Shown here: in pieces, positions 5,515 through 57,244 of the stretch | Numbering within the stretch: position 1 is the stretch's first letter | How the letters are laid out: each line of letters begins with the position of its first letter | Position numbers and translations under genes: made by a program | The notes under the pieces: model-generated | The model's input: the letters and a program-made list of their open reading frames with translations, nothing else | What the model was told of the DNA's origin: nothing | Databases searched by the model: none | NCBI GenBank assembly: GCA_964016885.1 | Contig: OZ024743.1 | Location: forward strand, 286,192,001 to 286,256,000 | Source: Eledone cirrhosa | Taxonomy: Eukaryota | Direction: 5' to 3' | Length of the DNA: 64,000 nt

Positions 5515-5859
<345 letters not shown>

Positions 5860-5910
5860 TATATATATAATTTAGCGAAGGTATTTTATATATAAATATA
5901 TATATATATA

Positions 5911-6433
5911 AATACATAATCGGAGAAAGCTAATAGCGATACTACGGCCAAATTCCAACTCACTCAGGAAATACCTGAGTATATTCCTAATTAAACGTTC
6001 GGGGTGCTAACTAATTGTATTGTGTGGAAAATTGGCTGTATCATTCCATATGAGATATATCAAATATATCACTTCCCATACGACTCGTTTCATTATAAGA
6101 TTTCTACAAGTTGGTTGAAATTATACCAAATTATGTAGAAGCTTGTATAAGATCAACAGATACTTATTCAAGTGGGCTCTTATAATTCTTCAGTGGGTGC
6201 CCAATAATATTAATATTGATAACCAAATCAACATCAATATTTAGCGATAATCACCATCAGTGCTTGAGGGAGCTGCTAGGTTGTTAGTCCAGCAGTTCTA
6301 AAGAAAATCTCACACTGTCTCGAAAATAGGAGGAAGGAAACTACCGCCAAAAAAAACAATACATGCGCAGGTCATTGAACTCTGAAAAGAATTCAAGCCA
6401 CGTGCTAGAACTCAATTGGATATGAAAAAATAA

Positions 6434-6436
<3 letters not shown>
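5911..6436 (-). mobile_element. Hammerhead-bearing non-coding repeat (PLE pLTR or retrozyme-like), homologous to 55978-56530
   Basis: Co-linear similarity with 55978-56530 (e.g. GGGGTGCTAACTA, GTTTCATTATAAG, TATGTAGAAGC, GAACTCAATT). Flanked by (TA)n. Confidence 0.65.
6075..6197 (-). ncRNA. Intact type I hammerhead ribozyme with long branched stem II
   Basis: Minus strand: CCCA-CTGAAGA-ATTATAAG...CTTATAAT-GAAAC-GAGTC-GTA-TGGG. Stems I and II are perfect, there is an internal helix TTCTACA/TGTAGAA, and the cleavage triplet is GUA. Confidence 0.75.
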
Positions 6437-6491
<55 letters not shown>

Positions 6492-6499
<8 letters not shown>

Positions 6500-15060: not shown

Positions 15061-18000
15061 TTACAGATATATGCTCAGAGTAGGCCCATTCACTCGGGCC
15101 ATTCTTGCTTCTCTCACCCATCTTTCAACAAAATGCTGGGAAGAGAGCACTTCCCTCTCTACTCTGATTTTCCTTTTCAAATGAAATTTGAAAAAGTCAA
15201 TCAGAGCATCACCGAAGAGGTAAGTGCTCGTCTTCAGCCCTTTCAAACGTGTCCACCATACTATCTCTTTCGCCATGGCCACCAGGCAGATAAAAACTGC
15301 CTGCCCTTCCCGGCTAAAGGAGGAGGGCGGGGCAATCCTCACGATAGACTCAGATGATAGCTGGATCCGTCCTAAACGCGACAGCAGGTGTTCGACATAA
15401 ACCCACAAGTCAGCAATTTTCGGACACTGGACGAGTGCGTGCAGGACGGTTTCGTCGCCCTGCGCGCATCTCGGACATGCCCGGCTGACGGCACCTCCAT
15501 GCCTGTAGAGTTTATCCCGAACTGGCAAGGCTCCTCGGTAGCACTGCCAGGCCAGAGATTTCTGGAAGTTGTCCATAGGCCCCGGCCCGAAAGTTCTTCC
15601 GAAGAGATTGGCTAGTTGATTTTCGTCGACGCCTAGAGTTTCCCCAAGTACGTCGTCGCTCTTCCCCTCCACTAATCCTCTATAGAACGCCGAGGTGGAG
15701 TTTCCACCGATCACATTGCCCGATTGGTCGAGGGCTGTGAGCGCCTGAAGACATTCCAGTCTCCAGGCGCTCCCTCTCGGTCTTCGCTTGACCCAGGACT
15801 GCAGCTCCGTCAAGGAAACGAGCTGGGGAAAAACGCGTCTAGCAAACGGCGACCACACCTGATCACCGTCGAGGAAGAGGTGGAGATGTCGTAGCCTGAG
15901 CGCGTGCCTGCGCATCATCAGCCACGGCATGCCCAGCCCTCCACGTAGCGGGTGTTGACAACAGATGGACCGCCTGACCATCGGAGCACGTCCCTTCCAC
16001 AAAAAGCGAAAGAGCAAACGCTCCAGCGCAGTCAGGCGAGGCTTAGGACAAGGTACGACGGTTAGGCGGTAGCAGATGACAGACGCGATGTACGCGTTAG
16101 CCACCTCCGCTCGACCTTTCAGGGATAGCTTCCTCTCCGCCCATTTCTGGGTGAGAGAAGCCACCCTGCTCGTCACCTCGTCCCAGTTTTTGTCCGTCTG
16201 GAGGTCCGGACCGAACCAGACCCCTAGCAATTTAACCGGTCCGTCCGTCCAGCGCCCGACGACGCTGTTGGACGGCATGGACCTGCCTCTCCAGGTGCCG
16301 AGCTGCAGGCCCACTGACTTTTCCTGGTTGATCATTGCTCCTGTCACCGCTTCGTATTCTCTTAGTGTAGTGCCGATCGCCTCGATGTGTTTGGCGTTCG
16401 ACACCACTACGGTGACATCGTCCGCATATGCTGACACGGATCTTCCGCATCCTAGTTCGCGCGGGACTCCCCTCAACGTCTCCAGTTTGTGCAGTAATGG
16501 CTCGAGCGTCAATACGTACAAGAGGGACGAGAGGGGACATCCTTGGCGGACCGAGCGCATGATGTTGAACGGTTCCGACAGGTGACCGTTCACTCTCACC
16601 ACAGAGCAGATGTCACTGTGCATGGCAGCGATCCAGCCTCTGAAGACGGGCCCAAAGCCAGCCGCCCTCAGGACTGCCGCTAGGTAACGATGGTCGACCC
16701 TATCGAAAGCTTTCGACTGATCTAAATTGATCAAGGACCCACCCGTGCCAGGTTCCCTAGCTACCCTCTCTACGATGTATCGCATGAGGTGGAGGTTGTC
16801 GTGGATGGATCTGTCGGGAATGGCGCATGTCTGCGCCTCTCCCACCAGACCACCAACGACAAGCGCCAACCTCTTTGCTAGCACCTTGGCCAAAATCTTA
16901 AACTCTGTGTTTAGCAGAGTTATGGGCCGGAAATTGTCTATGTTATCCCCCTTGTTCGGATCCTTTCTCAGCAGTGCCACCGCTCCTCGGCTCACAGAAC
17001 TGGGAATTCTCCCGTTCTGTTGCCAGTTGCAGTAGACGTCCGCCAAGAGGCCTCCGAACAAGTCTGGCATCTGTACGTAAAGTTCATAGGGCAGACCATC
17101 CAAACCAGGCGATTTACCCCTTGTGCAGCCAGTCATTGCCTCCCTTACTTCAGCGGCTGTTATCGGCTTTTCGCAACACTTCGCCTCAGTGGCCGAGAGC
17201 CGCGGCAGTCCGTCGAGGTAGACACTAAAGTCCATCCCTCTACCCGGCCCCCCGCTGCCCCCGAACAGCTGAGCGAAGTGTCGCTGAAAAGCTTCACACA
17301 TTTGCCCGGGATCGAGTAGCATGCGCCCGTCGTGGTCCACCAAAGACCGGATCGTGGCTTTGTTGCCACGACGCGCCTCCGCCACTCGGGCCCATTGAAC
17401 GGCTTTCGTCCCCTCGTGTCTGAGAGCACGCACCCTAGCTCTGACAACGCAGCCTTCGTGCTTTGCATTGAAGAATTGGTCAAGGGCCAATTTCGCCGCA
17501 AGCACGTCGGTCGCAATGCCTTTGCTAAGCGCCTCGTCTAATTTTCTAACTAGTTCTCCCTCTGCTCTATTTTTCTCTATTGCTAAAGCCTTACTAAACC
17601 TAATCGATTCTATTCTAATCGCTCTTTTCAGAGCAAACCACCACTTGTTGTTGACGATGGCCCCCGTCAACGCCCGCTTAACTAGTTCGCTAATCCGGTC
17701 TCTGTAGGCCTTGCGCGCTGGTAAGGACGCGTTTAGCTTCCAGTAGCCGGGTCCTCGTCTATGAAGCCTATCTAAGTCAAGCACACAGATCACGAATTTG
17801 TGGTCCGTGTAGCTGACTATCTTGAATTGTGGACAGCCTATGCTAGACCTATCTATTTCCCTACAAAATACTCTATCTAGATATGATCTGGATGACCCTA
17901 TGCGGTTTGTCCAAGTCCACATTGGCACATTCGGGAAATCCAATCGGTACCTGTCAGACAGTTCAAAACGCCTGAGCAGGTTGGTGAGGCTCTTGCACCC

Positions 18001-18480
18001 TCCACCCCTATCCGCTAATCCCACACAGTCCCAGCGTGCATCTAAGATCCCGTTCCAGTCGCCCACTAACACTAAAGAGCGGGACGTTCCAAGAAAGGTC
18101 TCCAGACGCCGGAAGAAATCAGGCCGCCCTGCTCCTGTCGGGGCATAGACGGCCACTAGCCTGAAAGCTTGCCCGTCTCCGCTGGTCACGTCCAGCACCA
18201 CCAGCTTACCCTCTGGGTCCAGGAAGATGGCCCGTATGGCGAGATCCAAACCTCTCCGAAAAAGCACAGCAACTCCTCCACCCGATCCAGGACGGCTGGG
18301 AGATGCGTACACATCGTAGCCGCCGAAGATCGGTACGAAGGCCCGTGCTTCGGAGATTCTGGTCTCGCTGATGGCCACTACATCTATGTTTAGTGACCTG
18401 AGGTCGTTGAGCAGGTGACCCTGCTTCCATGACGACCCCAAGCCACGCGCATTTATGCTGCCTATTCTGAGTGAGGTCAT
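15061..18480 (-). CDS. ORF2p: APE endonuclease, reverse transcriptase and C-terminal zinc-binding domain (1139 aa)
   Basis: EN motifs SINARG, ISETR, VGDWN, YLDRVF, TDHK. RT motifs FRPITLLN, DQSKAFDRV, VRQGCPLS, YADD. C-terminal CPRC..H...C. Confidence 0.95.
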   Translation of the reverse strand: MTSLRIGSINARGLGSSWKQGHLLNDLRSLNIDVVAISETRISEARAFVPIFGGYDVYASPSRPGSGGGVAVLFRRGLDLAIRAIFLDPEGKLVVLDVTSGDGQAFRLVAVYAPTGAGRPDFFRRLETFLGTSRSLVLVGDWNGILDARWDCVGLADRGGGCKSLTNLLRRFELSDRYRLDFPNVPMWTWTNRIGSSRSYLDRVFCREIDRSSIGCPQFKIVSYTDHKFVICVLDLDRLHRRGPGYWKLNASLPARKAYRDRISELVKRALTGAIVNNKWWFALKRAIRIESIRFSKALAIEKNRAEGELVRKLDEALSKGIATDVLAAKLALDQFFNAKHEGCVVRARVRALRHEGTKAVQWARVAEARRGNKATIRSLVDHDGRMLLDPGQMCEAFQRHFAQLFGGSGGPGRGMDFSVYLDGLPRLSATEAKCCEKPITAAEVREAMTGCTRGKSPGLDGLPYELYVQMPDLFGGLLADVYCNWQQNGRIPSSVSRGAVALLRKDPNKGDNIDNFRPITLLNTEFKILAKVLAKRLALVVGGLVGEAQTCAIPDRSIHDNLHLMRYIVERVAREPGTGGSLINLDQSKAFDRVDHRYLAAVLRAAGFGPVFRGWIAAMHSDICSVVRVNGHLSEPFNIMRSVRQGCPLSSLLYVLTLEPLLHKLETLRGVPRELGCGRSVSAYADDVTVVVSNAKHIEAIGTTLREYEAVTGAMINQEKSVGLQLGTWRGRSMPSNSVVGRWTDGPVKLLGVWFGPDLQTDKNWDEVTSRVASLTQKWAERKLSLKGRAEVANAYIASVICYRLTVVPCPKPRLTALERLLFRFLWKGRAPMVRRSICCQHPLRGGLGMPWLMMRRHALRLRHLHLFLDGDQVWSPFARRVFPQLVSLTELQSWVKRRPRGSAWRLECLQALTALDQSGNVIGGNSTSAFYRGLVEGKSDDVLGETLGVDENQLANLFGRTFGPGPMDNFQKSLAWQCYRGALPVRDKLYRHGGAVSRACPRCAQGDETVLHALVQCPKIADLWVYVEHLLSRLGRIQLSSESIVRIAPPSSFSREGQAVFICLVAMAKEIVWWTRLKGLKTSTYLFGDALIDFFKFHLKRKIRVEREVLSSQHFVERWVREARMARVNGPTLSIYL

Positions 18481-18515
18481 GTTTAAAATAGAGTGGAAAA
18501 GATGGGAAAGACCAC

Positions 18516-20630
18516 TTACCGTACTTTTGGTAGAGGAGGGATGGTTTTTACATCCCTTTTCACTTGATCGTCTGGTGAAGGGACCGTTGAATCGTCCCTT
18601 CGGCTGGTCGTCGGCTCTTCTAAGAGAATGTCTGAGTATACTCTTCGATTGATGGTTCCTCCTAGGTCCCTGAAATCACCAACTGCGTTGGGGAATTTCG
18701 TTTTAGTGTTTGTGTATTGTTTCTGTGCTATTTTTAGCAGTCTTATGTTAGTTGGCGTTTTGATTGGTGCTGGTATTATGTAGTCCTGTTGTGAAATGTC
18801 TGTGTGTTCAATTATGTAAATCATTAGTTTCTTGTTGTGTGTATTTATTGCCGTGCATTTGTTTTTCTGGGGGTGGGGTGTGGTTCTGCTATTTTCTTGT
18901 CGTTGTTGCTGGGTGTGTGTGTTTTGTTGTTGTGTTTGCGATGTTGGTGCTTGTGGTGGTGGTGTTGAAGGTGTTGTTGGCGGTGGGGTTGTCGCCGGTG
19001 GTGATGGTGGTGCTAGTGTGGGTGGTGATGGTGTTGGTGTTGTTGCTGCTGTGGGTCTCTTTGCAGTAGACTTTACCCTTTTCTCATTTCTTTCCTCCCT
19101 TTTCAAAGGCGACGATGCGCTGCTTCTGCGTTTGTGCCTTCTTGCGACCTTTTGCCATCCCTCTCCCACCTCACACTCCATGTCTGATTCTGTGAGGTCG
19201 GGGAGGGGTACCAGCTCCACTCTTTCACTTGTTGTTGTTGGTGATGTTTGCACTGGAGTCTCTGTTGCAGCTGCATTTGGTATTGCTGTTGTTGTTGTTA
19301 ATATTTCCACTGCTGCTGCTGTTTTTGATTTCCGTGGCGTGGGTATGGGTGCCACGGACCTATCGTTCCTGGTTGCCGCTTGTCCTGTTGCTGGTAGCCG
19401 TGGAGCCGGATTCGGAAGGAGGGGGGTTTTCTCCTTTCTCAGGGTCTTCTCGTTGCAGAAGGCCCTGAGGTGAGTCTTCGATCCACAGCGAAAGCATTTC
19501 GGGCGTTTGCCCTCAACACTTATGGGCAGTTGAGTGCCGTTATCGAAGTCTATCACATCCGGGATAGCTTCGATGCACTCCTGGTTGGTTTGGATTAGCA
19601 TCTCAATGGAGGTGCCTACCCAATCTTCTCTTACTTTTTTCTGTACTTGCAGTACAGTTGTTTTGTCCTCGATTCCGACGAGGACAGACGCGGCCAGCCA
19701 AGAAGGGGCCATTCCGGGGGGGGGGGGGGGGGAGACGTGGGTCAGTTTGACCCTCACAATTTTTTGCCCGCAGTAGGAGGGCACCAACACCATTTCCTCG
19801 CTCCTTGGGGTCACTACTGATTGGGCCTTTGCCTCCTGGGGTGTGGCAAAAAGTACGTCTACGGTGGCATATTTTTTGCCTCGGGTGATGTGCGTTTTCC
19901 GCTGCCACACAGACCCCAAGGCTTTTTGTATCTGAGCCTCTGTGGCTCTTTCCACCCTACGGGATTTTGTACTTACTGTACGGTACGTGACCGTACAGTG
20001 CTGTTGGGTTTCGAAAAATTTTTCCGCTGCCTTGCAGATTGCTCGGTGTCCATTCTTTGTCACCATCTTCTTCGCTTCCTCTAATTCCTCATTTGTTATG
20101 AGGATTGTTTCCAAGTTTTTCGCAATGCCTGCAAATGAGATTGGTTTTTCTTTGCTGCTATTGTTGTTGTTGTCGTCAGAGCTGCTGGTACTTTTGTTGT
20201 TGCTGCAGGTACTACGACTACTGCCTCCGCCGCTGTTGCTGTGGTTGTTGTTGGTGTTGCTGCTGCTAATGCTGTTGTTGTTTATGCTGCTGGTGATGCT
20301 GTTGCGGCTGCTACTGTTGTTTTCATTGTCACTGTTGCTGTTGTTATTACGGCTGCTACTGCTATTATTCCTGACGTCAGACGAATGAACTGGGTTTTCG
20401 TATTTCCCGCACACCTGTTTCGTCGCTGTCGTCGTCGTCGTGGAGAAACCTTGCACGCTTTGCACGAGACTTTTCTTTTCTTTCGTCACTTGCGAAAGAG
20501 AAGGGAGGGAGAGAGACACATTTAAAGAAGGGAGGGAGAGAGACAATCTTCTCTCTGCTGTAGTGATGATTGAGGAAGAAGAAGACGGAATGAGTGGGAG
20601 TGACGTATGAAATTTCTTTTTCGTAGCCAT
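18516..20630 (-). CDS. ORF1p: low-complexity N-terminus, putative RRM-like region, single CCHC knuckle, Pro/Thr-rich tail (704 aa)
   Basis: CFRCGSKTHLRAFC (CX2CX4HX4C). Lies 35 bp upstream of ORF2. Confidence 0.88.
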   Translation of the reverse strand: MATKKKFHTSLPLIPSSSSSIITTAERRLSLSLPSLNVSLSLPSLSQVTKEKKSLVQSVQGFSTTTTTATKQVCGKYENPVHSSDVRNNSSSSRNNNSNSDNENNSSSRNSITSSINNNSISSSNTNNNHSNSGGGSSRSTCSNNKSTSSSDDNNNNSSKEKPISFAGIAKNLETILITNEELEEAKKMVTKNGHRAICKAAEKFFETQQHCTVTYRTVSTKSRRVERATEAQIQKALGSVWQRKTHITRGKKYATVDVLFATPQEAKAQSVVTPRSEEMVLVPSYCGQKIVRVKLTHVSPPPPPGMAPSWLAASVLVGIEDKTTVLQVQKKVREDWVGTSIEMLIQTNQECIEAIPDVIDFDNGTQLPISVEGKRPKCFRCGSKTHLRAFCNEKTLRKEKTPLLPNPAPRLPATGQAATRNDRSVAPIPTPRKSKTAAAVEILTTTTAIPNAAATETPVQTSPTTTSERVELVPLPDLTESDMECEVGEGWQKVARRHKRRSSASSPLKREERNEKRVKSTAKRPTAATTPTPSPPTLAPPSPPATTPPPTTPSTPPPQAPTSQTQQQNTHTQQQRQENSRTTPHPQKNKCTAINTHNKKLMIYIIEHTDISQQDYIIPAPIKTPTNIRLLKIAQKQYTNTKTKFPNAVGDFRDLGGTINRRVYSDILLEEPTTSRRDDSTVPSPDDQVKRDVKTIPPLPKVR

Positions 20631-21112
20631 GTTGTTTTTTTGTTTAAAATGAATATTGGGTACAAAACCCCAATAACTGGTTATTTAACCCCGAAGGGCC
20701 AAATAACGGACAGAAAGACCCCTCTCACGAGAAGGAGGGTGTCTTTATCAACAATTTGGTTCAAGTTTTAAACAATTTACAATTGTTTTAACGGTTAAAA
20801 ATTACTATACCTTACAGAGCCGAGCCTCCATCAACCATGGCATTCAATAATGATTTCTTTATTAACCACAAGGGTTTACATAAAGTAGACATTAAGGACA
20901 GTGCAGGACAATGCAGGACGGTACAAATGGGCATTTCTGCGTGTAAAAAAACAAAAATAGAGGATGTAACAAAATAACAATGAAAATAACAATGAAAAAT
21001 TCCCCAATAGGGGGGAGACTTCGGAGGGACATTTGTGGAGAAAGCCCAGTAAAAAGCCACAATGACCCTGACCACCAAGGCAAGTGCCCTCTCCCAGTTT
21101 TCCACCTTTAGT

Positions 21113-24100
21113 TTACAGATATATACTCAGAGTCGGCCCATTCACTCGGGCCATTCTTGCTTCTCTCACCCATCTTTCAACAAAATGCTGGGAAGAGAGC
21201 ACTTCCTTCTCTACTCTGATTTTCCTTTTCAAATGAAATTTGAAAAAGTCAATCAGAGCATCACCGAAGAGGTAAGTGCTCGTCTTCAGCCCTTTCAAAC
21301 GTGTCCACCATACTATCTCTTTCGCCATGGCCACCAGACAGATAAAAACTGCCTGCCCTTCCCGGCTAAAGGAGGAGGGCGGGGCAATCCTCACGATAGA
21401 CTCAGATGATAGCTGGATCCGTCCTAAACGCGACGGCAGGTGTTCGACATAAACCCACAAGTCAGCAATTTTCGGACACTGGACGAGTGCGTGCAGGACG
21501 GTTTCGTCGCCCTGCGCGCATCTCGGACATGCCCGGCTGACGGCACCTCCATGCCTGTAGAGTTTATCCCGAACTGGCAAGGCTCCTCGGTAGCACTGCC
21601 AGGCCAGAGATTTCTGGAAGTTGTCCATAGGCCCTGGCCCGAAGGTTCTTCCGAAGAGATTGGCTAGTTGATTTTCGTCGACGCCTAGAGTTTCCCCAAG
21701 TACGTCGTCGCTCTTCCCCTCCACTAATCCTCTATAGAACGCCGAGGTGGAGTTTCCACCGATCACATTGCCCGATTGGTCGAGGGCTGTGAGCGCCTGA
21801 AGACATTCCAGTCTCCAGGCGCTCCCTCTCGGTCTTCGCTTGACCCAGGACTGCAGCTCCGTCAAGGAAACGAGCTGGGGAAAAACGCGTCTAGCAAACG
21901 GCGACCACACCTGATCACCGTCGAGGAAGAGGTGGAGATGTCGTAGCCTGAGCGCGTGCCTGCGCATCATCAGCCACGGCATGCCCAGCCCTCCACGTAG
22001 CGGGTGTTGACAACAGATGGACCGCCTGACCATCGGAGCACGTCCCTTCCACAAAAAGCGAAAGAGCAAACGCTCCAGCGCAGTCAGGCGAGGCTTAGGA
22101 CAAGGTACGACGGTTAGGCGGTAGCAGATGACAGACGCGATGTACGCGTTAGCCACCTCCGCTCGACCTTTCAGGGATAGCTTCCTCTCCGCCCATTTCT
22201 GGGTGAGAGAAGCCACCCTGCTCGTCACCTCGTCCCAGTTTTTGTCCGTCTGGAGGTCCGGACCGAACCAGACCCCTAGCAATTTAACCGGTCCGTCCGT
22301 CCAGCGCCCGACGACGCTGTTGGACGGCATGGACCTGCCTCTCCAGGTGCCGAGCTGCAGGCCCACTGACTTTTCCTGGTTGATCATTGCTCCTGTCACC
22401 GCTTCGTATTCTCTTAGTGTAGTGCCGATCGCCTCGATGTGTTTGGCGTTCGACACCACTACGGTGACATCGTCCGCATATGCTGACACGGATCTTCCGC
22501 ATCCTAGTTCGCGCGGGACTCCCCTCAACGTCTCCAGTTTGTGCAGTAATGGCTCGAGAGTCAATACGTACAAGAGGGACGAGAGGGGACATCCTTGGCG
22601 GACCGAGCGCATGATGTTGAACGGTTCCGACAGGTGACCGTTCACTCTCACCACAGAGCAGATGTCGCTGTGCATGGCAGCGATCCAGCCTCTGAAGACG
22701 GGCCCAAAGCCAGCCGCCCTCAGGACTGCCGCTAGGTAACGATGGTCGACCCTATCGAAAGCTTTCGACTGATCTAAATTGATCAAGGACCCACCCGTGC
22801 CAGGTTCCCTAGCTACCCTCTCTACGATGTATCGCATGAGGTGGAGGTTGTCGTGGATGGATCTGTCGGGAATGGCGCATGTCTGCGCCTCTCCCACCAG
22901 ACCACCAACGACAAGCGCCAACCTCTTTGCTAGCACCTTGGCCAAAATCTTAAACTCTGTGTTTAGCAGAGTTATGGGCCGGAAATTGTCTATGTTATCC
23001 CCCTTGTTCGGATCCTTTCTCAGCAGTGCCACCGCTCCTCGGCTCACAGAACTGGGAATTCTCCCGTTCTGTTGCCAGTTGCAGTAGACGTCCGCCAAGA
23101 GGCCTCCGAACAAGTCTGGCATCTGTACGTAAAGTTCATAGGGCAGACCATCCAAACCAGGCGATTTACCCCTTGTGCAGCCAGTCATTGCCTCCCTTAC
23201 TTCAGCGGCTGTTATCGGCTTTTCGCAACACTTCGCCTCAGTGGCCGAGAGCCGCGGCAGTCCGTCGAGGTAGACACTAAAGTCCATCCCTCTACCCGGC
23301 CCCCCGCTGCCCCCGAACAGCTGAGCGAAGTGTCGCTGAAAAGCTTCACACATTTGCCCGGGATCGAGTAGCATGCGCCCGTCGTGGTCCACCAAAGACC
23401 GGATCGTGGCTTTGTTGCCACGACGCGCCTCCGCCACTCGGGCCCATTGAACGGCTTTCGTCCCCTCGTGTCTGAGAGCACGCACCCTAGCTCTGACAAC
23501 GCAGCCTTCGTGCTTTGCATTGAAGAATTGGTCAAGGGCCAATTTCGCCGCAAGCACGTCGGTCGCAATGCCTTTGCTAAGCGCCTCGTCTAATTTTCTA
23601 ACTAGTTCTCCCTCTGCTCTATTTTTCTCTATTGCTAAAGCCTTACTAAACCTAATCGATTCTATTCTAATCGCTCTTTTCAGAGCAAACCACCACTTGT
23701 TGTTGACGATGGCCCCCGTCAACGCCCGCTTAACTAGTTCGCTAATCCGGTCTCTGTAGGCCTTGCGCGCTGGTAAGGATGCGTTTAGCTTCCAGTAGCC
23801 GGGTCCTCGTCTATGAAGCCTATCTAAGTCAAGCACACAGATCACGAATTTGTGGTCCGTGTAGCTGACTATCTTGAATTGTGGACAGCCTATGCTAGAC
23901 CTATCTATTTCCCTACAAAATACTCTATCTAGATATGATCTGGATGACCCTATGCGGTTTGTCCAAGTCCACATTGGCACATTCGGGAAATCCAATCGGT
24001 ACCTGTCAGACAGTTCAAAACGCCTGAGCAGGTTGGTGAGGCTCTTGCACCCTCCACCCCTATCCGCTAATCCCACACAGTCCCAGCGTGCATCTAAGAT

Positions 24101-24532
24101 CCCGTTCCAGTCGCCCACTAACACTAAAGAGCGCGACGTTCCAAGAAAGGTCTCCAGACGCCGGAAGAAATCAGGCCGCCCTGCTCCTGTCGGGGCATAG
24201 ACGGCCACTAGCCTGAAAGCTTGCCCGTCTCCGCTGGTCACGTCCAGCACCACCAGCTTACCTTCTGGGTCCAGGAAGATGGCCCGTATGGCGAGATCCA
24301 AACCTCTCCGAAAAAGCACAGCAACTCCTCCACCCGATCCAGGACGGCTGGGAGATGCGTACACATCGTAGCCGCCGAAGATCGGTGCGAAGGCCCGTGC
24401 TTCGGAGATTCTGGTCTCGCTGATGGCCACTACATCTATGTTTAGTGACCTGAGGTCGTTGAGCAGGTGACCCTGCTTCCATGACGACCCCAAGCCACGC
24501 GCATTTATGCTGCCTATTCTGAGTGAGGTCAT
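21113..24532 (-). CDS. ORF2p (APE-RT), intact, 1139 aa
   Basis: Differs from copy 1 ORF2 at only a few residues (V/A, L/P, R/K seen). Confidence 0.95.
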   Translation of the reverse strand: MTSLRIGSINARGLGSSWKQGHLLNDLRSLNIDVVAISETRISEARAFAPIFGGYDVYASPSRPGSGGGVAVLFRRGLDLAIRAIFLDPEGKLVVLDVTSGDGQAFRLVAVYAPTGAGRPDFFRRLETFLGTSRSLVLVGDWNGILDARWDCVGLADRGGGCKSLTNLLRRFELSDRYRLDFPNVPMWTWTNRIGSSRSYLDRVFCREIDRSSIGCPQFKIVSYTDHKFVICVLDLDRLHRRGPGYWKLNASLPARKAYRDRISELVKRALTGAIVNNKWWFALKRAIRIESIRFSKALAIEKNRAEGELVRKLDEALSKGIATDVLAAKLALDQFFNAKHEGCVVRARVRALRHEGTKAVQWARVAEARRGNKATIRSLVDHDGRMLLDPGQMCEAFQRHFAQLFGGSGGPGRGMDFSVYLDGLPRLSATEAKCCEKPITAAEVREAMTGCTRGKSPGLDGLPYELYVQMPDLFGGLLADVYCNWQQNGRIPSSVSRGAVALLRKDPNKGDNIDNFRPITLLNTEFKILAKVLAKRLALVVGGLVGEAQTCAIPDRSIHDNLHLMRYIVERVAREPGTGGSLINLDQSKAFDRVDHRYLAAVLRAAGFGPVFRGWIAAMHSDICSVVRVNGHLSEPFNIMRSVRQGCPLSSLLYVLTLEPLLHKLETLRGVPRELGCGRSVSAYADDVTVVVSNAKHIEAIGTTLREYEAVTGAMINQEKSVGLQLGTWRGRSMPSNSVVGRWTDGPVKLLGVWFGPDLQTDKNWDEVTSRVASLTQKWAERKLSLKGRAEVANAYIASVICYRLTVVPCPKPRLTALERLLFRFLWKGRAPMVRRSICCQHPLRGGLGMPWLMMRRHALRLRHLHLFLDGDQVWSPFARRVFPQLVSLTELQSWVKRRPRGSAWRLECLQALTALDQSGNVIGGNSTSAFYRGLVEGKSDDVLGETLGVDENQLANLFGRTFGPGPMDNFQKSLAWQCYRGALPVRDKLYRHGGAVSRACPRCAQGDETVLHALVQCPKIADLWVYVEHLPSRLGRIQLSSESIVRIAPPSSFSREGQAVFICLVAMAKEIVWWTRLKGLKTSTYLFGDALIDFFKFHLKRKIRVEKEVLSSQHFVERWVREARMARVNGPTLSIYL

Positions 24533-24567
24533 GTTTAAAATAGAGTGGAAAAGATGGGAAAGACCAC

Positions 24568-26668
24568 TTACCGTATTTTTGGTAGAGGAGGGATGGTTTT
24601 TACATCCCTTTTCACTTGATCGTCTGGTGAAGGGACCGTTGAATCGTCCCTTCGGCTGGTCGTCGGCTCTTCTAAGAGAATGTCTGAATATACTCTTCGA
24701 TTAATGGTTCCTCCTAGGTCCCTGAAATCACCAACTGCGTTGGGGAATTTCGTTTTAATGTTTGTGTATTGTTTCTGTGCTATTTTTAGCAGTCTTATGT
24801 TAGTTGGCGTTTTGATTGGTGCTGGTATTATGTAGTCCTGTTGTGAAATGTCTGTGTGTTCAATTATGTAAGTCATTAGTTTCTTGTTGTGTGTGTTTAT
24901 TGCCGTGCATTTGTTTTTCTGGGGGTGGGGTGTGGTTCTGCTATTTTCTTGTCGTTGTTGCTGGGTGTGTGTGTTTTGTTGTTGTGTTTGCGATGTTGGT
25001 GCTTGTGGTGGTGGTGTTGAAGGTGTTGTTGGCGGTGGGGTTGTCGCCGGTGGTGATGGTGGTGCTGGTGTGGGTGGTGATGGTGTTGGTGGTGTTGCTG
25101 CTGTGGGTCTCTTTGCAGTAGACTTTACCCTTTTCTCATTTCTTTCCTCCCTTTTCAAAGGCGACGATGCGCTGCTTCTGCGTTTGTGCCTTCTTGAGAC
25201 CTTTTGCCATCCCTCTCCCACCTCACACTCCATGTCTGATTCTGTAAGGTCGGGGAGGGGTACCAGCTCCACTCTTTCACTTGTTGTTGTTGGTGATGTT
25301 TGCACTGGAGTCTCTGTTGCAGCTGCATTTGGTATTGCTGTTGTTGTTGTTAATATTTCCACTGCTGCTGCTGTCTTTGATTTCCGTGGAGTGGGTATGG
25401 GTGCCACGGACCTATCGTTCCTGGTTGCCGCTTGTCCTGTTGCTGGTAGCCGTGGAACCGGATTCGGGAGGAGGGGGGTTTTCTCCTTTCTCAGGGTCTT
25501 CTCGTTGCAGAAGGCCCTGAGGTGAGTCTTCGATCCACAGCGAAAGCATTTCGGGCGTTTGCCCTCAACACTTATGGGCAGTTGAGTGCCGTTATCGAAG
25601 TCTATCACATCCGGGATAGCTTCGATGCACTCCTGGTTGGTTTGGATTAGCATCTCAATGGAGGAGCCGACCCAATCTTCTCTTACTTTTTTCTGTACTT
25701 GCAGTACAGTTGTTTTGTCCTCGATTCCGACGAGGACAGACGCGGCCAGCCAAGAAGGGGTCATTCCGGGGGGGACGTGGGTCAGTTTGACCCTCACAAT
25801 TTTTTGCCCGCAGTAGGAGGGCACCAACACCATTTCCTCGCTCCTTAGGGTCACTACTGATTGGGCCTTTGCCTCCTGGGGTGTGGCAAAAAGTACGTCT
25901 ACGGTGGCGTATTTTTTTGCCTCGGGTGATGTGCGTTTTCCTCTGCCACACAGACCCCAAGGCTTTTTGTATTTGGGCCTCTGTGGCTCTTTCCACCCTA
26001 CGGGATTTTGTACTTACTGTACGGTACGTGACCGTACAGTGCTCTTGGGTTTCGAAAAAATTTTTCGCTGCCTTGCAGATTGCTCGGTGTCCGTTCTTTG
26101 TCACCATCTTCTTCGCTTCCTCTAATTCCTCATTTGTTATGAGGATTGTTTCCAGGTTTTTCGCAATACCTGCAAATGAGATTGGTTTTTCTCTGCTGTT
26201 GTTGTTGTCGTCAGAGCTGCTGGTACTTTTGTTGTTGCTGCAGGTACTACGACTACTGCCTCCGCCGCTGTTGCTGTGGTTGTTGTTGGTGTTGCTGCTG
26301 CTAATGCTGTTGTTGTTTATGCTGCTGGTGATGCTGTTGCGGCTGCTACTGTTGTTTTCATTGTCACTGTTGCTGTTGTTATTACGGCTGCTACTGCTAT
26401 TATTCCTGACGTCAGACGAATGAACTGGGTTTTCGTATTTCCCGCACACCTGTTTCGTCGCTGTCGTCGTCGTCGTGGAGAAACCTTGCACGCTTTGCAC
26501 GAGACTTTTCTTTTCTTTCGTCGCTTGCGAAAGAGAAGGTAGGGAGAGAGACACATTTAAAGAAGGGAGGGAGAGAGACAATCTTCTCTCTCCTGTAGTG
26601 ATGATTGAGGAAGAAGAAGACGGAATGAGTGGGAGTGACGTATGAAATTTTTTTTTTTTGGTAGCCAT
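24568..26668 (-). pseudogene. ORF1 of copy 2, split by +1 in a T homopolymer near 25912-25918
   Basis: ORFs 25655-26701 and 24568-25854 together reconstruct copy 1 ORF1. The indel could be a sequencing error. Confidence 0.8.
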
Positions 26669-26881
26669 GTTTTTTTGTTTAAAATGAAATTTTGGGTACA
26701 AAACCCCAATAACTGGCTATTTAACCCCGAAGGGCCAAATAACGGACAGAAAGACCCCTCTCACGAGGAGGAGGGTGTCTTTATCAACAATTTGGTTCAA
26801 GTTTTAAACAATTTACAATTGTTTTAACGGTTAAAAATTACTATACCTTACAGAGCCGAGCCTCCGTCAACCATGGCATTC

Positions 26882-26944
<63 letters not shown>

Positions 26945-29900
26945 TTCTTTATTAACCACAAGGGTTTACATAAAGTAGACATTAAGGACAGTGCAGGACA
27001 ATGCAGGACGGTACAAATGGGCATTTCTGCGTGTAAAAACAAAAACAGAGGATGTAACAAAAAATAACAATGAAAAATTCCCCAATAGGGGGGAGACTTC
27101 GGAGGGACATTTGTGGAGAAAGCCCAGTAAAAAGCCACAATGACCCTGACCACCAAGGCAAGTGCCCTCTCCCAGTTTTCCACCTTTAATTTACAGATAT
27201 ATAATCAGAGTAGGCCCATTCACTCGGGCCATTCTTGCTTCTCTCACCCATCTTTCAACAAAATGCGTTGAGAGAGCACTTCCCTCTCTACTCTGATTTT
27301 CCTTTTCAAATGAAATTTGAAAAAGTCAATCAGGGCATCACCGAAGAGGTAAGTGCTCGTCTTCAGCCCTTTCAAACGTGTCCACCATACTATCTCTTTC
27401 GCCATGGCCACCAGACAGATAAAAACTGCCTGCCCTTCCCGGCTAAAGGAGGAGGGCGGGGCAATCCTCACGATGGACTCAGATGATAGCCGGATCCGTC
27501 CTACACGCGACAGCAGGTGTTCGACATAAACCCACAAGTCAGCAATTTTCGGACACTGGACGAGTGCGTGCAGGACGGTTTCGTCGCCCTGCGCGCATCT
27601 CGGACATGCCCGGCTAACGGCACATCCATGCCTGTAGAGTTTATCCCGAACTGGCAAGGCTCCTCGGTAGCACTTCCAGGCCAGAGATTTCTGGAAGTTG
27701 TCCATAGGCCCCGGCCCGAAAGTTCTTCCGAAGAGATTGGCTAGTTGATTTTCGTCGACGCCTAGAGTTTCCCCAAGTACGTCGTCGCTCTTACCCTCCA
27801 CTAATCCTCTATAGAACGCCGAGGTGGAGTTTCCACCGATCACATTGCCCGATTGGTCGAGGGCTGTGAGCGCCTGAAGACATTCCAGTCTCCAGGCGCT
27901 CCCTCTCGGTCTTCGCTTGACCCAGGACTGCAGCTCCGTCAAGGAAACGAGCTGGGGAAATACGTGTCTAGCAAACGGCGACCACACTTGATCACCGTCG
28001 AGGAAGAGGTGGAGATGTCGTAGCCTGAGCGCGTGCATGCGCATCATCAGCCACGGCATGCCCAGCCCTCCACGTAGCGGGCGTTGACAACAGATGGACC
28101 GCCTGACCAAAAGGCGAAAGAGCAAACGCTCCAGCGCAGTCAGGCGAGGCTTAGGACAAGGTACGACAGTCAGGCGGTAGCAGATGACAGACGAGATGTA
28201 CGCGTTAGCCACCTCCGCTCGACCATTCAGTGATAGCTTCCTCTCCGCCCATTTCTGGGAGAGAGAAGTCACCCTGCTCGTCACCTCGTCCCAGTTTTTG
28301 TCCGTCTGGAGGTCCGGACCGAACCAGACCCCTAGCAATTTAACCGGTCCGTCCATCCAGCGTCCGACGACGCTGTTGGACGGCATGGACCTGCCTCTCC
28401 AGGTGCCGAGCTGCAAGCCCACTGACTTTTCCTGGTTGATCATTGCTCCTGTCACCGCTTCGTATTCTCTTAGTGTAGTGCCGATCGCCTCGATGTGTTT
28501 GGCGTTCGACACCACTACGGTGACATCGCCCGCATATGCTGACACGGATCTTCCGCATCCTAGTTCGTCTCCAGTTTGTGCAGTAATGGCTCGAGAGTCA
28601 ATTCGTACAAGAGGGACGAGAGGGGACATCCTTGGCGGACCGAGCGCATGATGTTGAACGGTGCATGGCAGCGATCCAGCCTCTGAAGACGGGCCCAAAG
28701 CCAGCCGCCCTCAGGACTGCCGCTAGGTAACGATGGTCGACCCTATCGAAAGCTTTCGACTTATCTAAATGATCAAGGACCCACTCGTGCCAGGTTCCCT
28801 AGCTACCCTCTCTACGATGTATCGCATGAGGTGGAGGTTGTCGTGGATGGATCTGTCGGGAATGGCGCATGTCTGCGCCTCTCCCACCAGACCACCAACG
28901 ACAAGCGCCAACCTCTTTGCTAGCACCTTGGCCAAAATCTTGAACTCTGTGTTTAGCAGAGTTATGGGCCTGAAATTATCTATGTTATCCCCCTTGTTCG
29001 GATCCTTTCTCAGCAGTGCCACCGCTCCTCGGCTCACAGAACTGGGAATTCTCCCGTTCTGTTGCCAGTTGCAGTAGACATCCGCCAAGAGGCCTCCGAA
29101 CAAGTCTGGCATCTGTACGTAAAGTTCATAGGGCAGACCATCCAAACCAGGCGATTTACCCCTTGTGCAGCCAGTCATTGCCTCCCTTACTTCAGCGGCT
29201 GTTATCGGCTTTTCGCAACACTCCGGCTCAGTGGCCGAGAGCCGCGGCAGTCCGTCGAGGTAGACACTAAAGTCCATCCCTCGACCCGGCCCACCGCTGC
29301 CCCCGAACAGCTGAGTGAAGTGTCGCTGAAAAGCTTCACACATTTGCCCGGGATCGAGTAGCATGCGCCCGTCGTGGTCCACCAAAGACCGGATCGTGGC
29401 TTTGTTGCCACGACGCGCCTCCGCCACTCGGGCCCATTGAACGGCTTTCGTCCCCTCGTGTCTGAGAGCACGCACCCTAGCTCTGACAACGCAGCCTTCG
29501 TGCTTTGCATTGAAGAATTGGTCAAGGGCCAATTTCGCCGCAAGCACGTCGGTCGCAATGCCTTTGCTAAGCGCCTCGTCTAATTTTCTAACTAGTTCTC
29601 CCTCTGCTCTATTTTTCTCTATTGCTAAAGCCTTACTAAACCTAATCGATTCTATTCTAATCGCTCTTTTCAGAGCAAACCACCACTTGTTGTTGACGAT
29701 GGCCCCCGTCAAGGCCCGCTTAACTAGTTCGCTAATCCGGTCTCTGTAGGCCTTGCGCGCTGGTAAGGACGCGTTTAGCTTCCAGTAGCCGGGTCCTCGT
29801 CTATGAAGCCTATCTAAGTCAAGCACACAAATCACGAATTTCTGGTCCGTGTAGCTGACTATCTTGAATTGTGGACAGCCTATGCTAGACCTATCTATTT

Positions 29901-32645
29901 CCCTACAAAATACTCTAATCTAGATATGATCTGGATGACCCTATACGATTTGTCCAAGTCCACATTGGCACATTCGGGAAATCCAATCGGTACCTGTCAG
30001 ACAGTTCAAAACGCCTGAGCAGGTTGGTGAGGCTCTTGCACACTCCTCCCCTATCCGCTAATCCCACACAGTCCCAGCGTGCATCTAAGATCCCGTTCCA
30101 ATCGCCCACTAATTCTAAAGAGCGGGACGTTCCAAGAAAGGTCTCCAGACGCCGGAAGAAATCAGGCCGCCCTGATCCTGTCGGGGCATAGACGGCCACT
30201 AGCCTGAAAGCTTGCCCGTCTCCGCTGGTCACGTCCAGCACCACCAACTTACCTTCTGGGTCCAGGAAGATGGCCCGTATGGCGAGATCCAAACCACTCC
30301 GAAAAAGCACAATAAATACTCCCCCCGATCCCAGACGGCTGGGAGATGCGTACACATCGTAGCCGCCGAAGATCGGTGCGAAGGCCCGTGCTTCGGAGAT
30401 TCTGGTCTCGCTGATGGCCACTACATCTATGTTTAGTGACCTGAGGTCGTTGAGCAGGTGGCCCTGCTTCCATGACGACCCCAAGCCACGCGCATTTATG
30501 CTGCCTATTCCGAGTGAGGTCATGTTGAAAAGGAGTGGAAAAGATGGGAAAGACCACTTACCTTACTTCTAGTAGAGGAAGGATGGTTTCTCCATCCTTT
30601 TCACAGCTTGTGGCCTCCTCAGGAAGGATGTCCTTATAAATCCTCCTGGAGAGTGCTTGTCAGAGGTCTCCGATGTCTTTGGGGGAATTTTTGTTTTAGT
30701 GTCGTGTACGTTTTCTGTGTGATGCGAGTGATTTGTATGTGTGGAGGTGGTGTGAACTTTTGGGGTGTTGTGTAGTCTTTTTCTGTGATGCTGGTGTTGT
30801 GTTGGATGTAGTGTAATAATTGGTTGTTGTTAAAATTTAATGCTGTGTGGTGTGTATCGTTTTGTTTTTGTGGTGTTGGTGATGGTGGTGTTGGGGTTAA
30901 TGATGGTGATGGTGTTGGTGTTTGGGGTGATGGGGTTGGTGATGCTGGTGTGGATGGTGGCATAGCTGTCCTAACTTTTTTGTTTGTTAGTTTATTTGTT
31001 TCCCCCTGTATTTTGTTTTTGGAGGGGGAAGGAAGCGGATTTTTTTCTTTTTGGGGTTCTTTTTCTTTTTTACTTTTTTCCTGATACAGTTTCCCACTCC
31101 TCGTCGTCACAATTTGTCTCCAGTTGCGATAGGTCGGGAGGTGGAAAATCCTCCACAGGCGTTGGTTTGGGTTGTGGCGTGGTGGATGGTGGAGGCGCTG
31201 GTGTTAGTTCTGGCGCGGTGGGTGGTGGTGGTGTTGGTTTTGCTACTGTTGCTGGGGTTGTTGCTGCTACAGTTGCTTCTGTTGTTGCTGCTACAGTTGT
31301 TGCTGCCATTTCTGCTGCTGGTGGTGTCGATGGTTGAGTCACTGGGGTGGGTAAGAGAGGTGACCTCAACTTTTTAGCCTGTGGGCACAAACGACACACC
31401 TAGGCCTTCTACCCTCGACGATTACGGTGAGGTGGCTGCCGTCAGTGAGGTCTATCACCTCTGGGATTTCCTCAATGCTTTTCTGATCCGCTTGGATCAG
31501 AAGCTTCATCCCAGATCCGGACCAGTTCTCCTGCTTTTCTTTTGTTACTTCGATTATTTTAGTGTTGGCCTCGATGCCGGCGAGGGAATTTCGATGGCCG
31601 GTGGAACGTGGGTCACCCTGATCTTCACGAGTCTCTGTCCACAATAGCTTGGAACGAGTGTGAAGTCGTCGCTTCTTAACGGGGCCATGGAGTGCTCTCT
31701 GGCCTCCTGTGGTGTTCCAAAGAACACGGCCACGGTTCCATATTTCTGCCCACGTCTGATGTGGGTTTTTTCGCCCACACATATCCCAAAGATTTTTGGA
31801 TTTGGGACTTGGATGCCCGTTCCACTCGGCGTGATTTTGTGTTAATCGTCCGATAAGACACGGTGCATAGGCGCCGATGCTCCATTTTATTAGGTGGGAG
31901 GGGGTGGGAGGGAGGGGGTGGGTGGGTGAGGCTGACTTTGTACCCATCTTTCTTTACCATTCTCTTGGCTTCATTTAATTCATCCTGAGTTACCTCGATT
32001 TTTTCGCTTATCTTGGCTGCTTTGGCAAACGACACATTTGCGGTGGTGTTGATGTTTTTGTTGTTCTTCTTATTGCTGTTGTTGCTGTTGTTGTTATTGT
32101 TATTTTTAGTTTCAGTTGTGGTGGAGGTGGTGGTGGTGTCAGTGGTGTTCGGCGTGGAAGAGTCGATTCTGGGTGAATTCATTTTGATGTCACGAGATAA
32201 TAATTTTTTTTTGGGGTTTCTGTTGTCGCTGTGGTGTTGGTGGTGGTGGTATCAGTGAAGTTCGTTGTTGTTTTTGACATTGTGGGGGTGGGGGTGGCGG
32301 CTTTAACACCTGCAGTTATTGGTAATGGCGGGAAATCCATGTCTTTATGCGGCAATTCTAAATAATTCAGACTGCTATTAATTATATTTTCAGTGGGAAC
32401 CATGGCAAGGCTTACAATGGTGTTGGTGTTGGTGGTGGTAGTGGAGGGGGTGTTGGTCTGTTAAAAACAGTAAATTTGTCGTCCATGTTTTTTTTCAAAG
32501 AAATATTTTGTTTGATAAATAAAAAGTTTAAGTCTTGGGCTCAAGGCCCCAATATTTTTTTGTGTCCTTTTCAGAAAGCAATATATGTGAACTTCTAAAT
32601 ACTTAACAACAAAAATTTTCCATAACTGGAAATCAATAGGTCACC
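26882..32645 (-). mobile_element. Tx1-like LINE copy 3, defective chimera (A-type 3' part, B-type ORF1/5' UTR)
   Basis: (AAT)n tail at 26882-26944. ORF2 (27190-30523) has deletions, frameshifts and YADD>YAGD. ORF1 is diverged from copies 1/2. Followed by (AAT)17 at 32646-32696. Confidence 0.88.
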
Positions 32646-34019: not shown

Positions 34020-37000
34020 TCGTTTAGCGTGATGGTGCCACGCTAAAATCACCGGTGGTTATGTCGAAAAGTGGAGACTGGAATGTCATGTGACAGACTC
34101 TCACCCAGCAGGTGCTCCCTGGTCCAGCAGCAGGGACCTAGCTGTCATCCAAATACTGCTGGTGTTGAAAGAAGGAAAAGAAGGAAAGGGACCAGAACCA
34201 ACTGGACGAAAGAATTGAATAGAACTGTTATGCAATGTTACCTGAAGGGTAACCCCAAGGAGAAAGGCTATAGGAAACGGATGCATAACATCTGGAACGA
34301 GATTGGTCTATTTAAATTAGATGAACAAAAATTGGCCGGGCAGGCTCGGGTAATAAGAACTAATGGGTGGATAAGCGAGCTGGAACTGGAGGAACTGAGC
34401 AGAGAGATTAGGTTGGAAATGGAGAGTGGAGTATGCCAGGCAAACGAGCCAGTGGGAAATGAAGGTGAAGAGGTTGAGAGAACGGAGGAAGCATCCGAAG
34501 CAGACAATGATCTGAATGCTGAAATAAATAATACCTGGAACAAAGATACGGCCATTGAGGAAATGAATGCTGACGGGCTAGGACAAGATTTGGTTGATAT
34601 TCTAAACTTAGTGGTAGATGAAATGAACAATGGTATTGGGAAACCTATGAACCTAAGATTTGTAGACAGGAAAAAGTTAAAAGAAACAACAGCTAAGGTA
34701 AACAAAATCATCCCATACCTTGAGGCGAGGAGCCTTCACCAGTGCAACAATATCCTTAAAGCAACAGCAAATGCGGTGAGGAAATTACTTAGCATAAAAG
34801 CGAGAGGAAACAACAAACAAGAAAGATCAGAACCTTGGTGGAAGAAACGACTGAATGGTCAAATCAGGGAAATGAGAAATGACATTGGAAAGCTTGAGTC
34901 CCTACTGAATGGGATACTAAAAAACATAGACACTAAAAATAGACTGGAAATAAAGTACAAAACTAGGAGGAAAAAGCTAAATATTATCATAGAGGAACTG
35001 AAGCAACGCATTGTAGCAAAGAGTGCAAAGATTAGGCCATACGAGAGCAGAGTCAGTCAGTATAGACAGAACTGTATGTTTGACAACAACCAGAAGATGT
35101 TGTTTGGACAGCTTGAAGGGAAAGAAAGAGGCAACGACTTGATCCCTGAGGCGGAACAAACTAAGACATTCTGGAGAGGAATATGCGAGCAGGATGTTAA
35201 ACATAATGATCAGGCAGTGTGAATTGAGACAGTACAAAAGGAGATTAGTGAACAGGCACACCAACAAACTGAATTGAGTATCACAGTTGAAACTCTTAAG
35301 GGGCAGGCCAAAAAACTAACCAACTGGAAATCACCAGGCCCAGATGGTGTGCAGGGGTATTGGATTAAAAATATAACATCCCTCCACCCGAAACTGACAA
35401 CCATGTTCAATGACTGCTTGATGTCAGGTGAGGTACCAGAGTGGTTGACAAAAGGTACCACAGTTCTGATAATGAAAGACTGAATCAAGGGTAATGATGT
35501 TACCAACTATAGACCTATCACATGTCTGTCCGTAATGTGGAAATTGTTAACAAGCATTGTGTCTGAGGAAATCTACCATCACCTCCACATAAACAACTTA
35601 TTACCGGACGAACAGAAAGGATGCCGAAAGAAGTCCCGTGGTACAAAGGACCAGTTACTTATTGATAAGATGGTAATGAGGAATTGCAAGAGGAGACACA
35701 CTGGTCTTGCCATGGGATGGATAGACTACAAAAAGGCATTCGACATGGTACCTCATTCTTGGATCACCAAAAGCCTAGAGATCTTCAAGGTGGCAGATAA
35801 CATCAGACAGTTGTTGAGCAAAAGTATGAAGTTAACATCAGCTGGAGAATCCTTGGGAGGCGTGAAGATCAAGAGAGGTATCTTCCAGGGAGATAGTCTT
35901 TCCCCTCTGTTGTTTGTCCTTGCCCTGATACCCCTGAACATTATACTCGGAAAAGTGAGAGCAGGATACAAGTTGGGAAAGGGAGAGCTTACCATCAATC
36001 ACCTCCTCTTCATGGACGATCTTAAGCTCTTCGGGAAGAGTGAGAAGGAGTTGTATGTGCTTGTTGACACTGTCCGTATTTTCAGCAATGATATATGTAT
36101 GCAATTTGGTATTAGTAAGCGTGGAGTCCTTGTGATGAAGAGGGGTAAATTGAGCAGAAGCAACGGAATCCAGGTACCAACAGGTGAGATGATAAAGGAA
36201 ATTGACACCGAAGAAGGATACAAATATTTAGGTGTTCTGGAGGCTGATGACATCAAGAACAAAAAAATGAAGGAATTGATAAGATCTGAATACATTCGGA
36301 GAGTAAGGAGCGTATTAAAATCACATCTGAACAGTAGGAATGCCATAAGTGCAGTAAATTCCCGAGCTGTGTCTATTATTAGGTACAGTGCGGGAATTCT
36401 GAGATGGAATGTTGCTGAACAAAAAGAAATGGATAGGAAGACTAGGAAGCTATTGACTATCTACAACATGTTCCACAAGAGGAGTGATGTCGATAGACTC
36501 TACTTAAGGAGATCTGAAGGTGGAAGAGGTCTTATCAGCATAGAGAACTGTGTTCAGATGGAGAAAAACAACTATACAAATACGTGACTGATAGTAGGGA
36601 GCCAATGCTCAGAATTGTACTGAAGGAGAGGACAATAGACCAGGGGATGTCCAAGGAGGAAATAACAAGGAGAAAGAGAAACCTTCATGAAAAATCTCTT
36701 CATAGTACCTTCTTTGAGAAAACTGAATTTAGAGATCCACAGATATGGAACTGGTTGAAAAGAGGAGACCTTAAAAAGGCTACAGAAGGAATGCTAATGG
36801 CTGCGCAAGAGCAGGCCCTCAAAACGAAGTGGGTGAAACACCATATTTACAAGGAGGAGGCTAGCCCACTGTGTAGGATCTGTGGAGAGAGAGATGAGAC
36901 TGTGGCTCACATTGTATCCGAGTGTAAACACCTAGCCCAGACTCACTATAAAGGCTGGAGACATGATGTGATGGGCAGGGTGATCCACTGGCACCTATGC

Positions 37001-55573: not shown

Positions 55574-55637
<64 letters not shown>

Positions 55638-55647
55638 GAAAAAATTC

Positions 55648-56900
<1,253 letters not shown>

Positions 56901-57244
56901 TATATATATATATACACACACACATATACATACATACACATATATATACACACATACAAATGTACATATACACATACAAATGTACATATACATATATACA
57001 CATATATACATATATATATATATACATACATACATATATACATTAATGCATATATATATAGTTAGGGAAGCAGAAAATTGCTTATTGTGATCCAGTTCGT
57101 GGTTAAGAAAGCCAGTTTCATGGATGGTTTCAACGTACGGTTAGGGGTAACTCCACAAGTTTGTAAGAATTCCGTTCAATCTTGGAGTATAAAGTATAAA
57201 AGAGAAAACACAGGTAAGCATTAAAAAAAAGGATTTTATCCAGG

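Follow-up and report, generated by a model that had tools for sequence, protein, structure and literature searches.

The locus analyzed here, a 64-kb stretch of Eledone cirrhosa DNA (hereafter, the window), raises the question of how a hammerhead motif can accommodate a stem II of about 95 nt, what kind of element carries such a motif, and what a pairing between its leader and its second loop might do. The original prediction of an intact, large hammerhead at 6075..6203 was borne out, with the addition of the strand, which the prediction had not given. A type I hammerhead with an intact core (hereafter, copy A) lies on the minus strand at 6197-6075 and was the sole match to a strict hammerhead descriptor within the 64-kb window. 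It contains the core elements CUGANGA, GAAA, and NUH in type I order, with three helices around the core, of which stem III is only 3 bp in the monomer, a weakness absent from the prediction.

Read along the minus strand, copy A begins with a leader, UGGGC (6203-6199), which alignment and a cross-family pairing test identify as one strand of the predicted pseudoknot helix. The 5' strand of stem I, CCCA (6194..6197), pairs with UGGG at 6078-6075 and is followed by the catalytic core CUGAAGA (6187..6193), in which N7 is A, U, or C depending on the subfamily and the other positions are invariant. The 5' strand of stem II (6178..6186) forms nine Watson-Crick base pairs with 6100-6092. Enclosed by stem II are GCCCA (6173..6177), which is the predicted partner of the leader and the only long single strand of a four-way junction, hairpin IIa (6142..6172), and hairpin IIb (6102..6140), composed of a UUCUACA/UGUAGAA helix, an internal loop, and a short upper stem. 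The descriptor match defines the 3' strand of stem II together with the core GAA (6089..6100, with GAA at 6091-6089) and, at the far end, A17 (6079) with the 3' strand of stem I, UGGG (6075..6079). Between these lies stem III, ACG-agu-CGU (6080..6088, A15.1 to U16.1), near-palindromic and, judging from duplex energies, a predicted dimer interface. Cleavage is predicted between 6079 and 6078, at a GUA site. The GUA triplet had been called correctly for copy A, but it is a minority variant, as C17 is the family majority and GUC occurs in 28 of the 30 best copies.

These features do not fit the canonical metazoan type I layout (6-bp helix I, 4-bp helix II, conserved loop contacts, and G10.1-C11.1), stems I and II being 4 bp and 9 bp long. 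A scan of the window with Rfam returned 68 matches at E ≤ 5, none of them to a hammerhead family, probably because of the 95-nt insert. By its core and helices copy A is a type I hammerhead, of neither the canonical nor the minimal subtype, whose cleavage is predicted from sequence.

The branching of stem II, which had been estimated at ~95 nt and measures exactly 95 nt as domain II, is backed by covariation. The 117 copies in the loci examined were sorted into subfamilies whose representatives are 65–92% identical, and 17 representatives were aligned. From this alignment RNAalifold recovered, unaided, the three hammerhead stems and a four-way junction bearing two hairpins, leaving GCCCA unpaired in the consensus. 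With the pseudoknot added, 95% of the 680 cells could pair, compared with 34–48% in slid-alignment controls, and 8 of the 40 pairs had two-sided changes: one in stem I, two in stem II, four in hairpin IIa (among nine counted pairs), and one in stem III. Because the alignment rows are related, these changes represent few independent events. Hairpin IIb was invariant, without covariation (six of its seven lower pairs do not change). The first stem II pair, A-U in copy A, is a U.U mismatch in 10 of the 17 rows and G-C in three. The domain II fold had z-scores of −3.3 in copy A and −4.0 in the subfamily B copy of the window.

The prediction had also pointed to a diverged homolog with the same architecture at 56161-56286. 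This copy lies on the minus strand within a subfamily B insertion (55972..56902) that comprises 1.3 monomers with a period of 712 nt, the upstream partial unit beginning inside the 3' half of a hammerhead. The layout of its hammerhead (56161..56286, 94-nt domain II, ACAAUUGU palindrome) is indeed the same, but its first stem II pair is U.U and its site is GUU, both of which are traits of its family (30 of 30 best copies). The complementarity of leader and loop II in both window copies and the TTCTACA/TGTAGAA helix are exactly as claimed; since that helix and the GGGC/GCCC core are identical in the two copies, no covariation can be drawn from those two. Covariation in stem I (CCCA/UGGG versus UCCA/UGGA) is real but confined to one pair, the outer one, which changes from C-G to U-A between subfamilies. 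As for the suggestion of an atypical large subclass, the motif is large and branched, but domains II across the hammerhead families in the loci examined range from 12 to about 104 nt. Long ones are common in this genome, so that the family of copy A stands out less as an isolated case than as an elaborate product of a local radiation. Another repeat family is represented on the minus strand near 5088 (L001, minus strand, 2633) by a small hammerhead whose domain II has 18 nt, and the pattern GAAACAATTGT followed by H and V occurs 51,996 times genome-wide against 906 for its control.

The element that carries the motif is very probably a retrozyme with a type I hammerhead. Copy A belongs to a 5'-truncated subfamily A insertion on the minus strand (5901..6439), which comprises 539 nt of a non-coding monomer of ~695 nt, is flanked on both sides by (TA)n, and is 95% identical to a tandem monomer at locus L018. 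It is a solo unit, 5% diverged, and may never be transcribed. The full unit has the anatomy of a non-LTR retrozyme, with one type I hammerhead per monomer, tandem arrangement, and no coding capacity: no open reading frame (ORF) of at least 150 amino acids was found in the copy A region and no long ORF in the unit. Neighboring pairs were spaced by tandem periods of 691–1009 nt in 14 of 16 cases, outside the 150–450 nt given for retrozyme monomers. The monomer has 34% GC, and its predicted circular fold had a z-score of −4.4 against 30 shuffles. A tRNA-derived SINE was ruled out, with no tRNA gene in any of four loci.

About 3,100 copies genome-wide carry the motif. In the 3.0-Gb genome, the 15-letter core-plus-stem pattern CTGANGANTTATAAG was counted 3,250 times and its reversed control 92 times, and of 26 matches sampled, 24 proved to be full hammerheads; together with the z-scores of the domain II fold, these results argue that the motif is not a product of chance. 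A covariance model of the copies, run on 52 sources, linked 24 strong clade members (at least 120 bits) and one partial member (70 bits), but the other long-arm families scored at most 21 bits and were not linked to the clade. In a metagenome scan, 97 sequences matched the 5' motif and none of them had the 3' arm, so no homolog outside the source genome was found.

The insertions end in a characteristic way. The end at about 5901 is sharp, with 28 of the 29 other best copies stopping at 5878-5905, and the opposite ends of those copies are ragged, from 6226 to 6498. Tandem copies read through the 3' end into the next unit, which makes it a fixed internal point of the monomer, ~178 nt downstream of the predicted cut. 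Contigs from three runs of one sample have the same 3' end joined to (TA)n, with C17, and are not independent support. Elsewhere in the window (5668-5862, 55634-55817, and 58543-58790) we observed a second small repeat inserted in (TA)n, with inverted arms, a GAAACGGC motif, and a hairpin at 5771-5834, which often adjoins the 3' end of the retrozyme. At loci L101-L114 and L096-L100 we saw young arrays of retrozymes whose monomers measure 457 nt and 523 nt; they reach eight units and include copies inverted head to head.

A fixed 3' end, a ragged 5' end, partial tandems, and a (TA)n target are the anatomy of Penelope-like elements (PLEs). The original prediction had compared the motif with PLE hammerheads, but a PLE host was not borne out: the unit has no ORF combining reverse transcriptase (RT) and GIY-YIG domains between repeats, as an autonomous PLE would, and the host is a non-coding retrozyme. 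Young ORFs of ~758 amino acids are abundant in the genome (99 of 99 scored matches at 92–100% identity) and give a weak GIY-YIG match below the Pfam cut-off; we take them to be Penelope-like from their motifs. The one autonomous family of this kind that we examined has a small hammerhead of its own, with a 12-nt domain II, and its 30 loci contained no retrozyme homology except for a retrozyme nested in L241. PLE ORFs beside the copies at L009, L012, L048, L066, and L080 were rejected as the element's own, as they differ from locus to locus; at L066 a long microsatellite lies between the PLE ORF and the retrozyme unit. The 836-amino-acid ORF beside the subfamily B copy (52859-55369, minus strand) was likewise rejected as a PLE partner, being a LINE fragment with RT and zf-RVT domains. 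Its C-terminal motif resembles a restriction-like endonuclease. Relatives of this fragment, 30–40% identical, lie at 35070-39793, and near-identical tandem LINE copies of ~6.05 kb with endonuclease, RT, and zf-RVT domains occupy 15061-32250, 40552-46153, and 60097-63650. By eye, a motif at about 5901-5920 in the window resembles a stretch downstream of an autonomous Penelope-like hammerhead (L246, minus strand, ~487-560), a possible signal for a common RT or endonuclease. Internal priming into AT-rich DNA has been demonstrated for an anole PLE (PMC11167929), and non-LTR retrozymes have been proposed to be non-autonomous PLE derivatives (10.64898/2026.07.22.740005).

The putative pseudoknot between leader and loop II was conserved across the clade. 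The flank of stem I and loop II are complementary over at least 4 bp, and the three central G-C pairs are intact in 17, 16, and 16 of the 17 rows. The outer pairs are each broken in four rows, however, making this the least well paired helix (88%). Within the 17-row clade alignment none of its five pairs had a two-sided compensatory change, although U-A to U-G and C-G to U-G changes were seen at its ends, so the prediction of a pseudoknot gained conservation but no covariation from the clade itself. GCCC is kept while stem I goes from CCCA/UGGG to UCCA/UGGA, so the loop strand follows the leader rather than stem I.

In a comparison across families, matched leaders and loops paired far better than swapped ones. 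The 397 hammerhead-like matches in 1.05 Mb of loci fell into 59 clusters. We left out six (coding or doubtful folds and one truncated leader) and a further 18 with domains II shorter than 26 nt, and in each of the remaining 35 families tested the final 12 bases of the leader against positions 7–18 of domain II. In the 13 families with an open domain II, that is, with an early unpaired strand, matched stacking energy was −7.9 against −5.2 ± 0.6 in 100,000 permutations (p = 1e-5), where the open class and the windows were picked after leads had been seen and only stacking energies were counted. The effect persisted after both window families and two sister families were dropped (n = 9, p = 5e-4) and over all 35 families (p = 6e-5). 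No effect was seen in the controls, which used the 3' strand (p = 0.54), the remaining 22 families (p = 0.24), or leader sequence further upstream. Pairing was weak in three of the 13 open families. The paired sequences vary from family to family (GGAAA/UUUCC, GAGAA/UUCUC, GCUC/GAGU, and GGGC/GCCC) and include a pyrimidine leader with a purine loop. This complementarity, with its null controls, indicates that the helix is probably real.

We propose that the 95-nt, four-way-junction domain II and a bracing pseudoknot of 4–5 bp belong to a retrozyme hammerhead that cuts as a dimer, a statement that we hold, as a whole, with moderate confidence. The leader and the free strand of the junction would form the pseudoknot, bracing stems I and II. 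In a transcript of tandem units, two motifs would pair through the palindromic stem III and then cut at GUC, and the resulting monomer of ~700 nt would circularize. A Penelope-like RT/endonuclease acting in trans might nick (TA)n and prime at the fixed internal site ~178 nt downstream of the cut; copying of a circle or an uncut multimer would yield partial tandems, and copying of cut linear RNA would yield short copies ending near the cut. Pseudoknots are reported to speed other hammerheads (PMC3088659).

The helix between the leader and GCCCA could instead be a switch or a folding trap, forming first during transcription, keeping the motif off to protect the monomer or circle, and opening or rearranging before the dimer cuts. 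We consider this rather unlikely; the cross-family complementarity does not separate a switch from a brace. The minimum-energy fold of copy A (−30.6) keeps the leader helix and loses the ribozyme fold, and the helix belongs to the inactive minimum-energy fold in both window copies and in the circular monomer. The register of stem lengths also appears tight. Stem I has 4–5 bp with a linker of 0–1 nt, i.e., 4–5 bp less than the 9-bp stem II, and in copy A stem I plus linker spans 5 nt against the 9 bp of stem II. Canonical stems I and II have 6 and 4 bp (PMC4209133), the reverse of the order in copy A, and the three-dimensional fit may be strained by this reversal. Against a switch, the helix takes no strand away from the active fold, both of its strands being free when copy A is constrained to the active nested fold (−27.5 without the pseudoknot), and it sits where known pseudoknots that activate hammerheads link stems I and II. 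Such pseudoknots are described as forming early and yet activating, and as obeying no simple rule in their length constraints (both PMC3088659), and there is a reported precedent for a 5-bp stem I and 6-bp stem II with a GCCR/YGGC pseudoknot (PMC7936874).

The proposal of a braced hammerhead that cuts as a dimer also draws on stem III. Its hairpin and self-duplex energies were +1.3 and −9.6 kcal/mol in subfamily A, +2.4 and −6.4 in B, and +2.4 and −10.0 in G, and a perfect stem III palindrome occurred in 28 of the 59 hammerhead clusters in the loci examined. With a stem III so weak and close to a palindrome, cutting probably depends on a dimer, as is implied for other hammerheads with a short palindromic helix III in reports on dimer-mode cutting (PMC4209133, PMC6765202). 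Traces that fit cleavage were sought in distinct 5' ends joined to (TA)n, counted by eye with copy numbers unnormalized per anchor, among 100 listed of 246 matches, 100 listed of 169, and all 53 for the control. Among the matches listed, 26 of 29 subfamily B/G ends lay at +2 to +10 after the cut, three at −15 to −1, and none at +1; for subfamily A, 12 of 19 listed ends lay at +1 to +8, three of them exactly at +1, and seven lay upstream. In a 26-nt control window placed farther downstream, 11 ends were counted over the same genome span (16 genome-wide). This pile-up fits copying of cut linear RNA, the cleavage itself being predicted, but microhomology to (TA)n or (GA)n, or stalling of RT at stem I, could yield the same pattern. 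One subfamily, which includes L217:1524-1667, has four nucleotides duplicated at the cut site, so that loop III contains a GACGTC palindrome; four of its 5' ends lie 5–7 nt before the cut.

That the hammerhead and its branched arm are real, but that the helix and hairpins serve binding of the helper RT or compaction of the circle while cleavage is weak or dispensable, strikes us as unlikely. Hairpin IIb is kept by sequence and not by covariation, as a protein site would be, and published work describes PLE hammerheads as poor cutters (PMC4209133), in vitro cutting by only one of nine Xenopus retrozyme dimers (10.64898/2026.07.22.740005), and an anole PLE for which hammerhead mutants had no effect on insertion in vitro and no RNA ends appeared at the cut site (PMC11167929). 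Set against these observations are a core that is invariant across subfamilies with 65–90% identity between representatives, a stem III palindrome that survives sequence changes, and the enrichment of 5' ends just past the cut. Least credible is that the complementarity within the clade is coincidental, the clade having started from a single ancestor whose leader happened to be rich in G and whose loop was rich in C. Such an origin would account for the invariance and accords with the lack of two-sided change, but unrelated families pair the same position with different sequences, controls are null, and adjacent unpaired positions vary.

Compared with known systems, the braced hammerhead proposed here would combine the dimer mode of retrozyme hammerheads with a pseudoknot of the Perreault type. 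Like metazoan non-LTR retrozymes (PMC7229834, 10.64898/2026.07.22.740005), the units here are tandem, low in GC, and devoid of coding capacity, contain a single type I hammerhead with a weak palindromic helix III, and co-occur with PLEs; an axolotl retrozyme family is also reported to have U.U at the base of helix II. The monomers are longer than the 150–450 bp of the first retrozyme report (PMC7229834) and, at 691–1009 nt, lie at or just above the top of a later range of 51–972 (10.64898/2026.07.22.740005). Known retrozymes have a hairpin helix II of ~4 bp and canonical contacts between loops 1 and 2, in contrast to the 95-nt branched domain II and predicted base-paired leader contact here, and the copies here, unlike theirs, are mostly solo or partial-tandem in (TA)n. 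PLE pLTR hammerheads share a helix I of 4–5 bp, a long helix II (7–8 bp there, 9 here), a small palindromic helix III, and the PLE-like insertion style (PMC4209133). They are described in the same source as minimal, without recognizable tertiary contacts, keeping G10.1-C11.1 and flanking an RT/GIY-YIG ORF. The unit described here, by contrast, lacks an ORF, and its hammerhead has a variable first pair and a loop II made up of three parts.

Pseudoknot hammerheads, including human C10orf118, likewise have a Watson-Crick helix of 4–6 bp from stem I to the stem II side; such pseudoknots occur in all three hammerhead types, in about 40% of the set studied, whose stem-length analysis left out highly repetitive type I motifs (PMC3088659). 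In our case, by contrast with the C10orf118 type, stem II has 9 bp and leads into a four-way junction that holds the partner strand. In toads and termites, HDV-like RNAs carry type III hammerheads that also have enlarged arms, a GCCR/YGGC pseudoknot, and a 5-bp stem I next to a longer, 6-bp stem II; in these, helix III is stable and the additional hairpin prolongs helix I instead of helix II (PMC7936874). A full-text search of mainly open-access literature, which covered main text and included PMC8557442, PMC7761336, PMC6962438, and PMC13725137, found neither among retrozymes nor among PLEs a hammerhead whose domain II is branched and ~95 nt long or that has such a pseudoknot. Within the text so covered, the combination of a branched domain II of ~95 nt with a leader pseudoknot in a retrozyme appears to be new, and since both the element class and the pseudoknot principle (PMC3088659) are known, the surprise is limited.

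The findings suggest that a large domain II can hide thousands of an animal genome's hammerheads from Rfam, and natural predicted hammerheads that tolerate a structured insert of ~100 nt could be useful in ribozyme design. We also raise, tentatively and with more doubt than confidence, the possibility that a large Penelope-associated class of hammerheads uses a pseudoknot from leader to loop II in an inverted register, with a stem I of 4–5 bp and a stem II of 7–9 bp. If so, the three-dimensional arrangement would be unlike the canonical one, domain II would be free to grow into a branched platform of ~100 nt, and both the poor cutting in vitro by trimmed PLE hammerheads and the escape of this class from Rfam and descriptor searches would be explained. 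PLE-type hammerheads have been characterized as weak, minimal motifs that lack tertiary contacts; for these, the retrozyme family described here supplies a concrete candidate contact.
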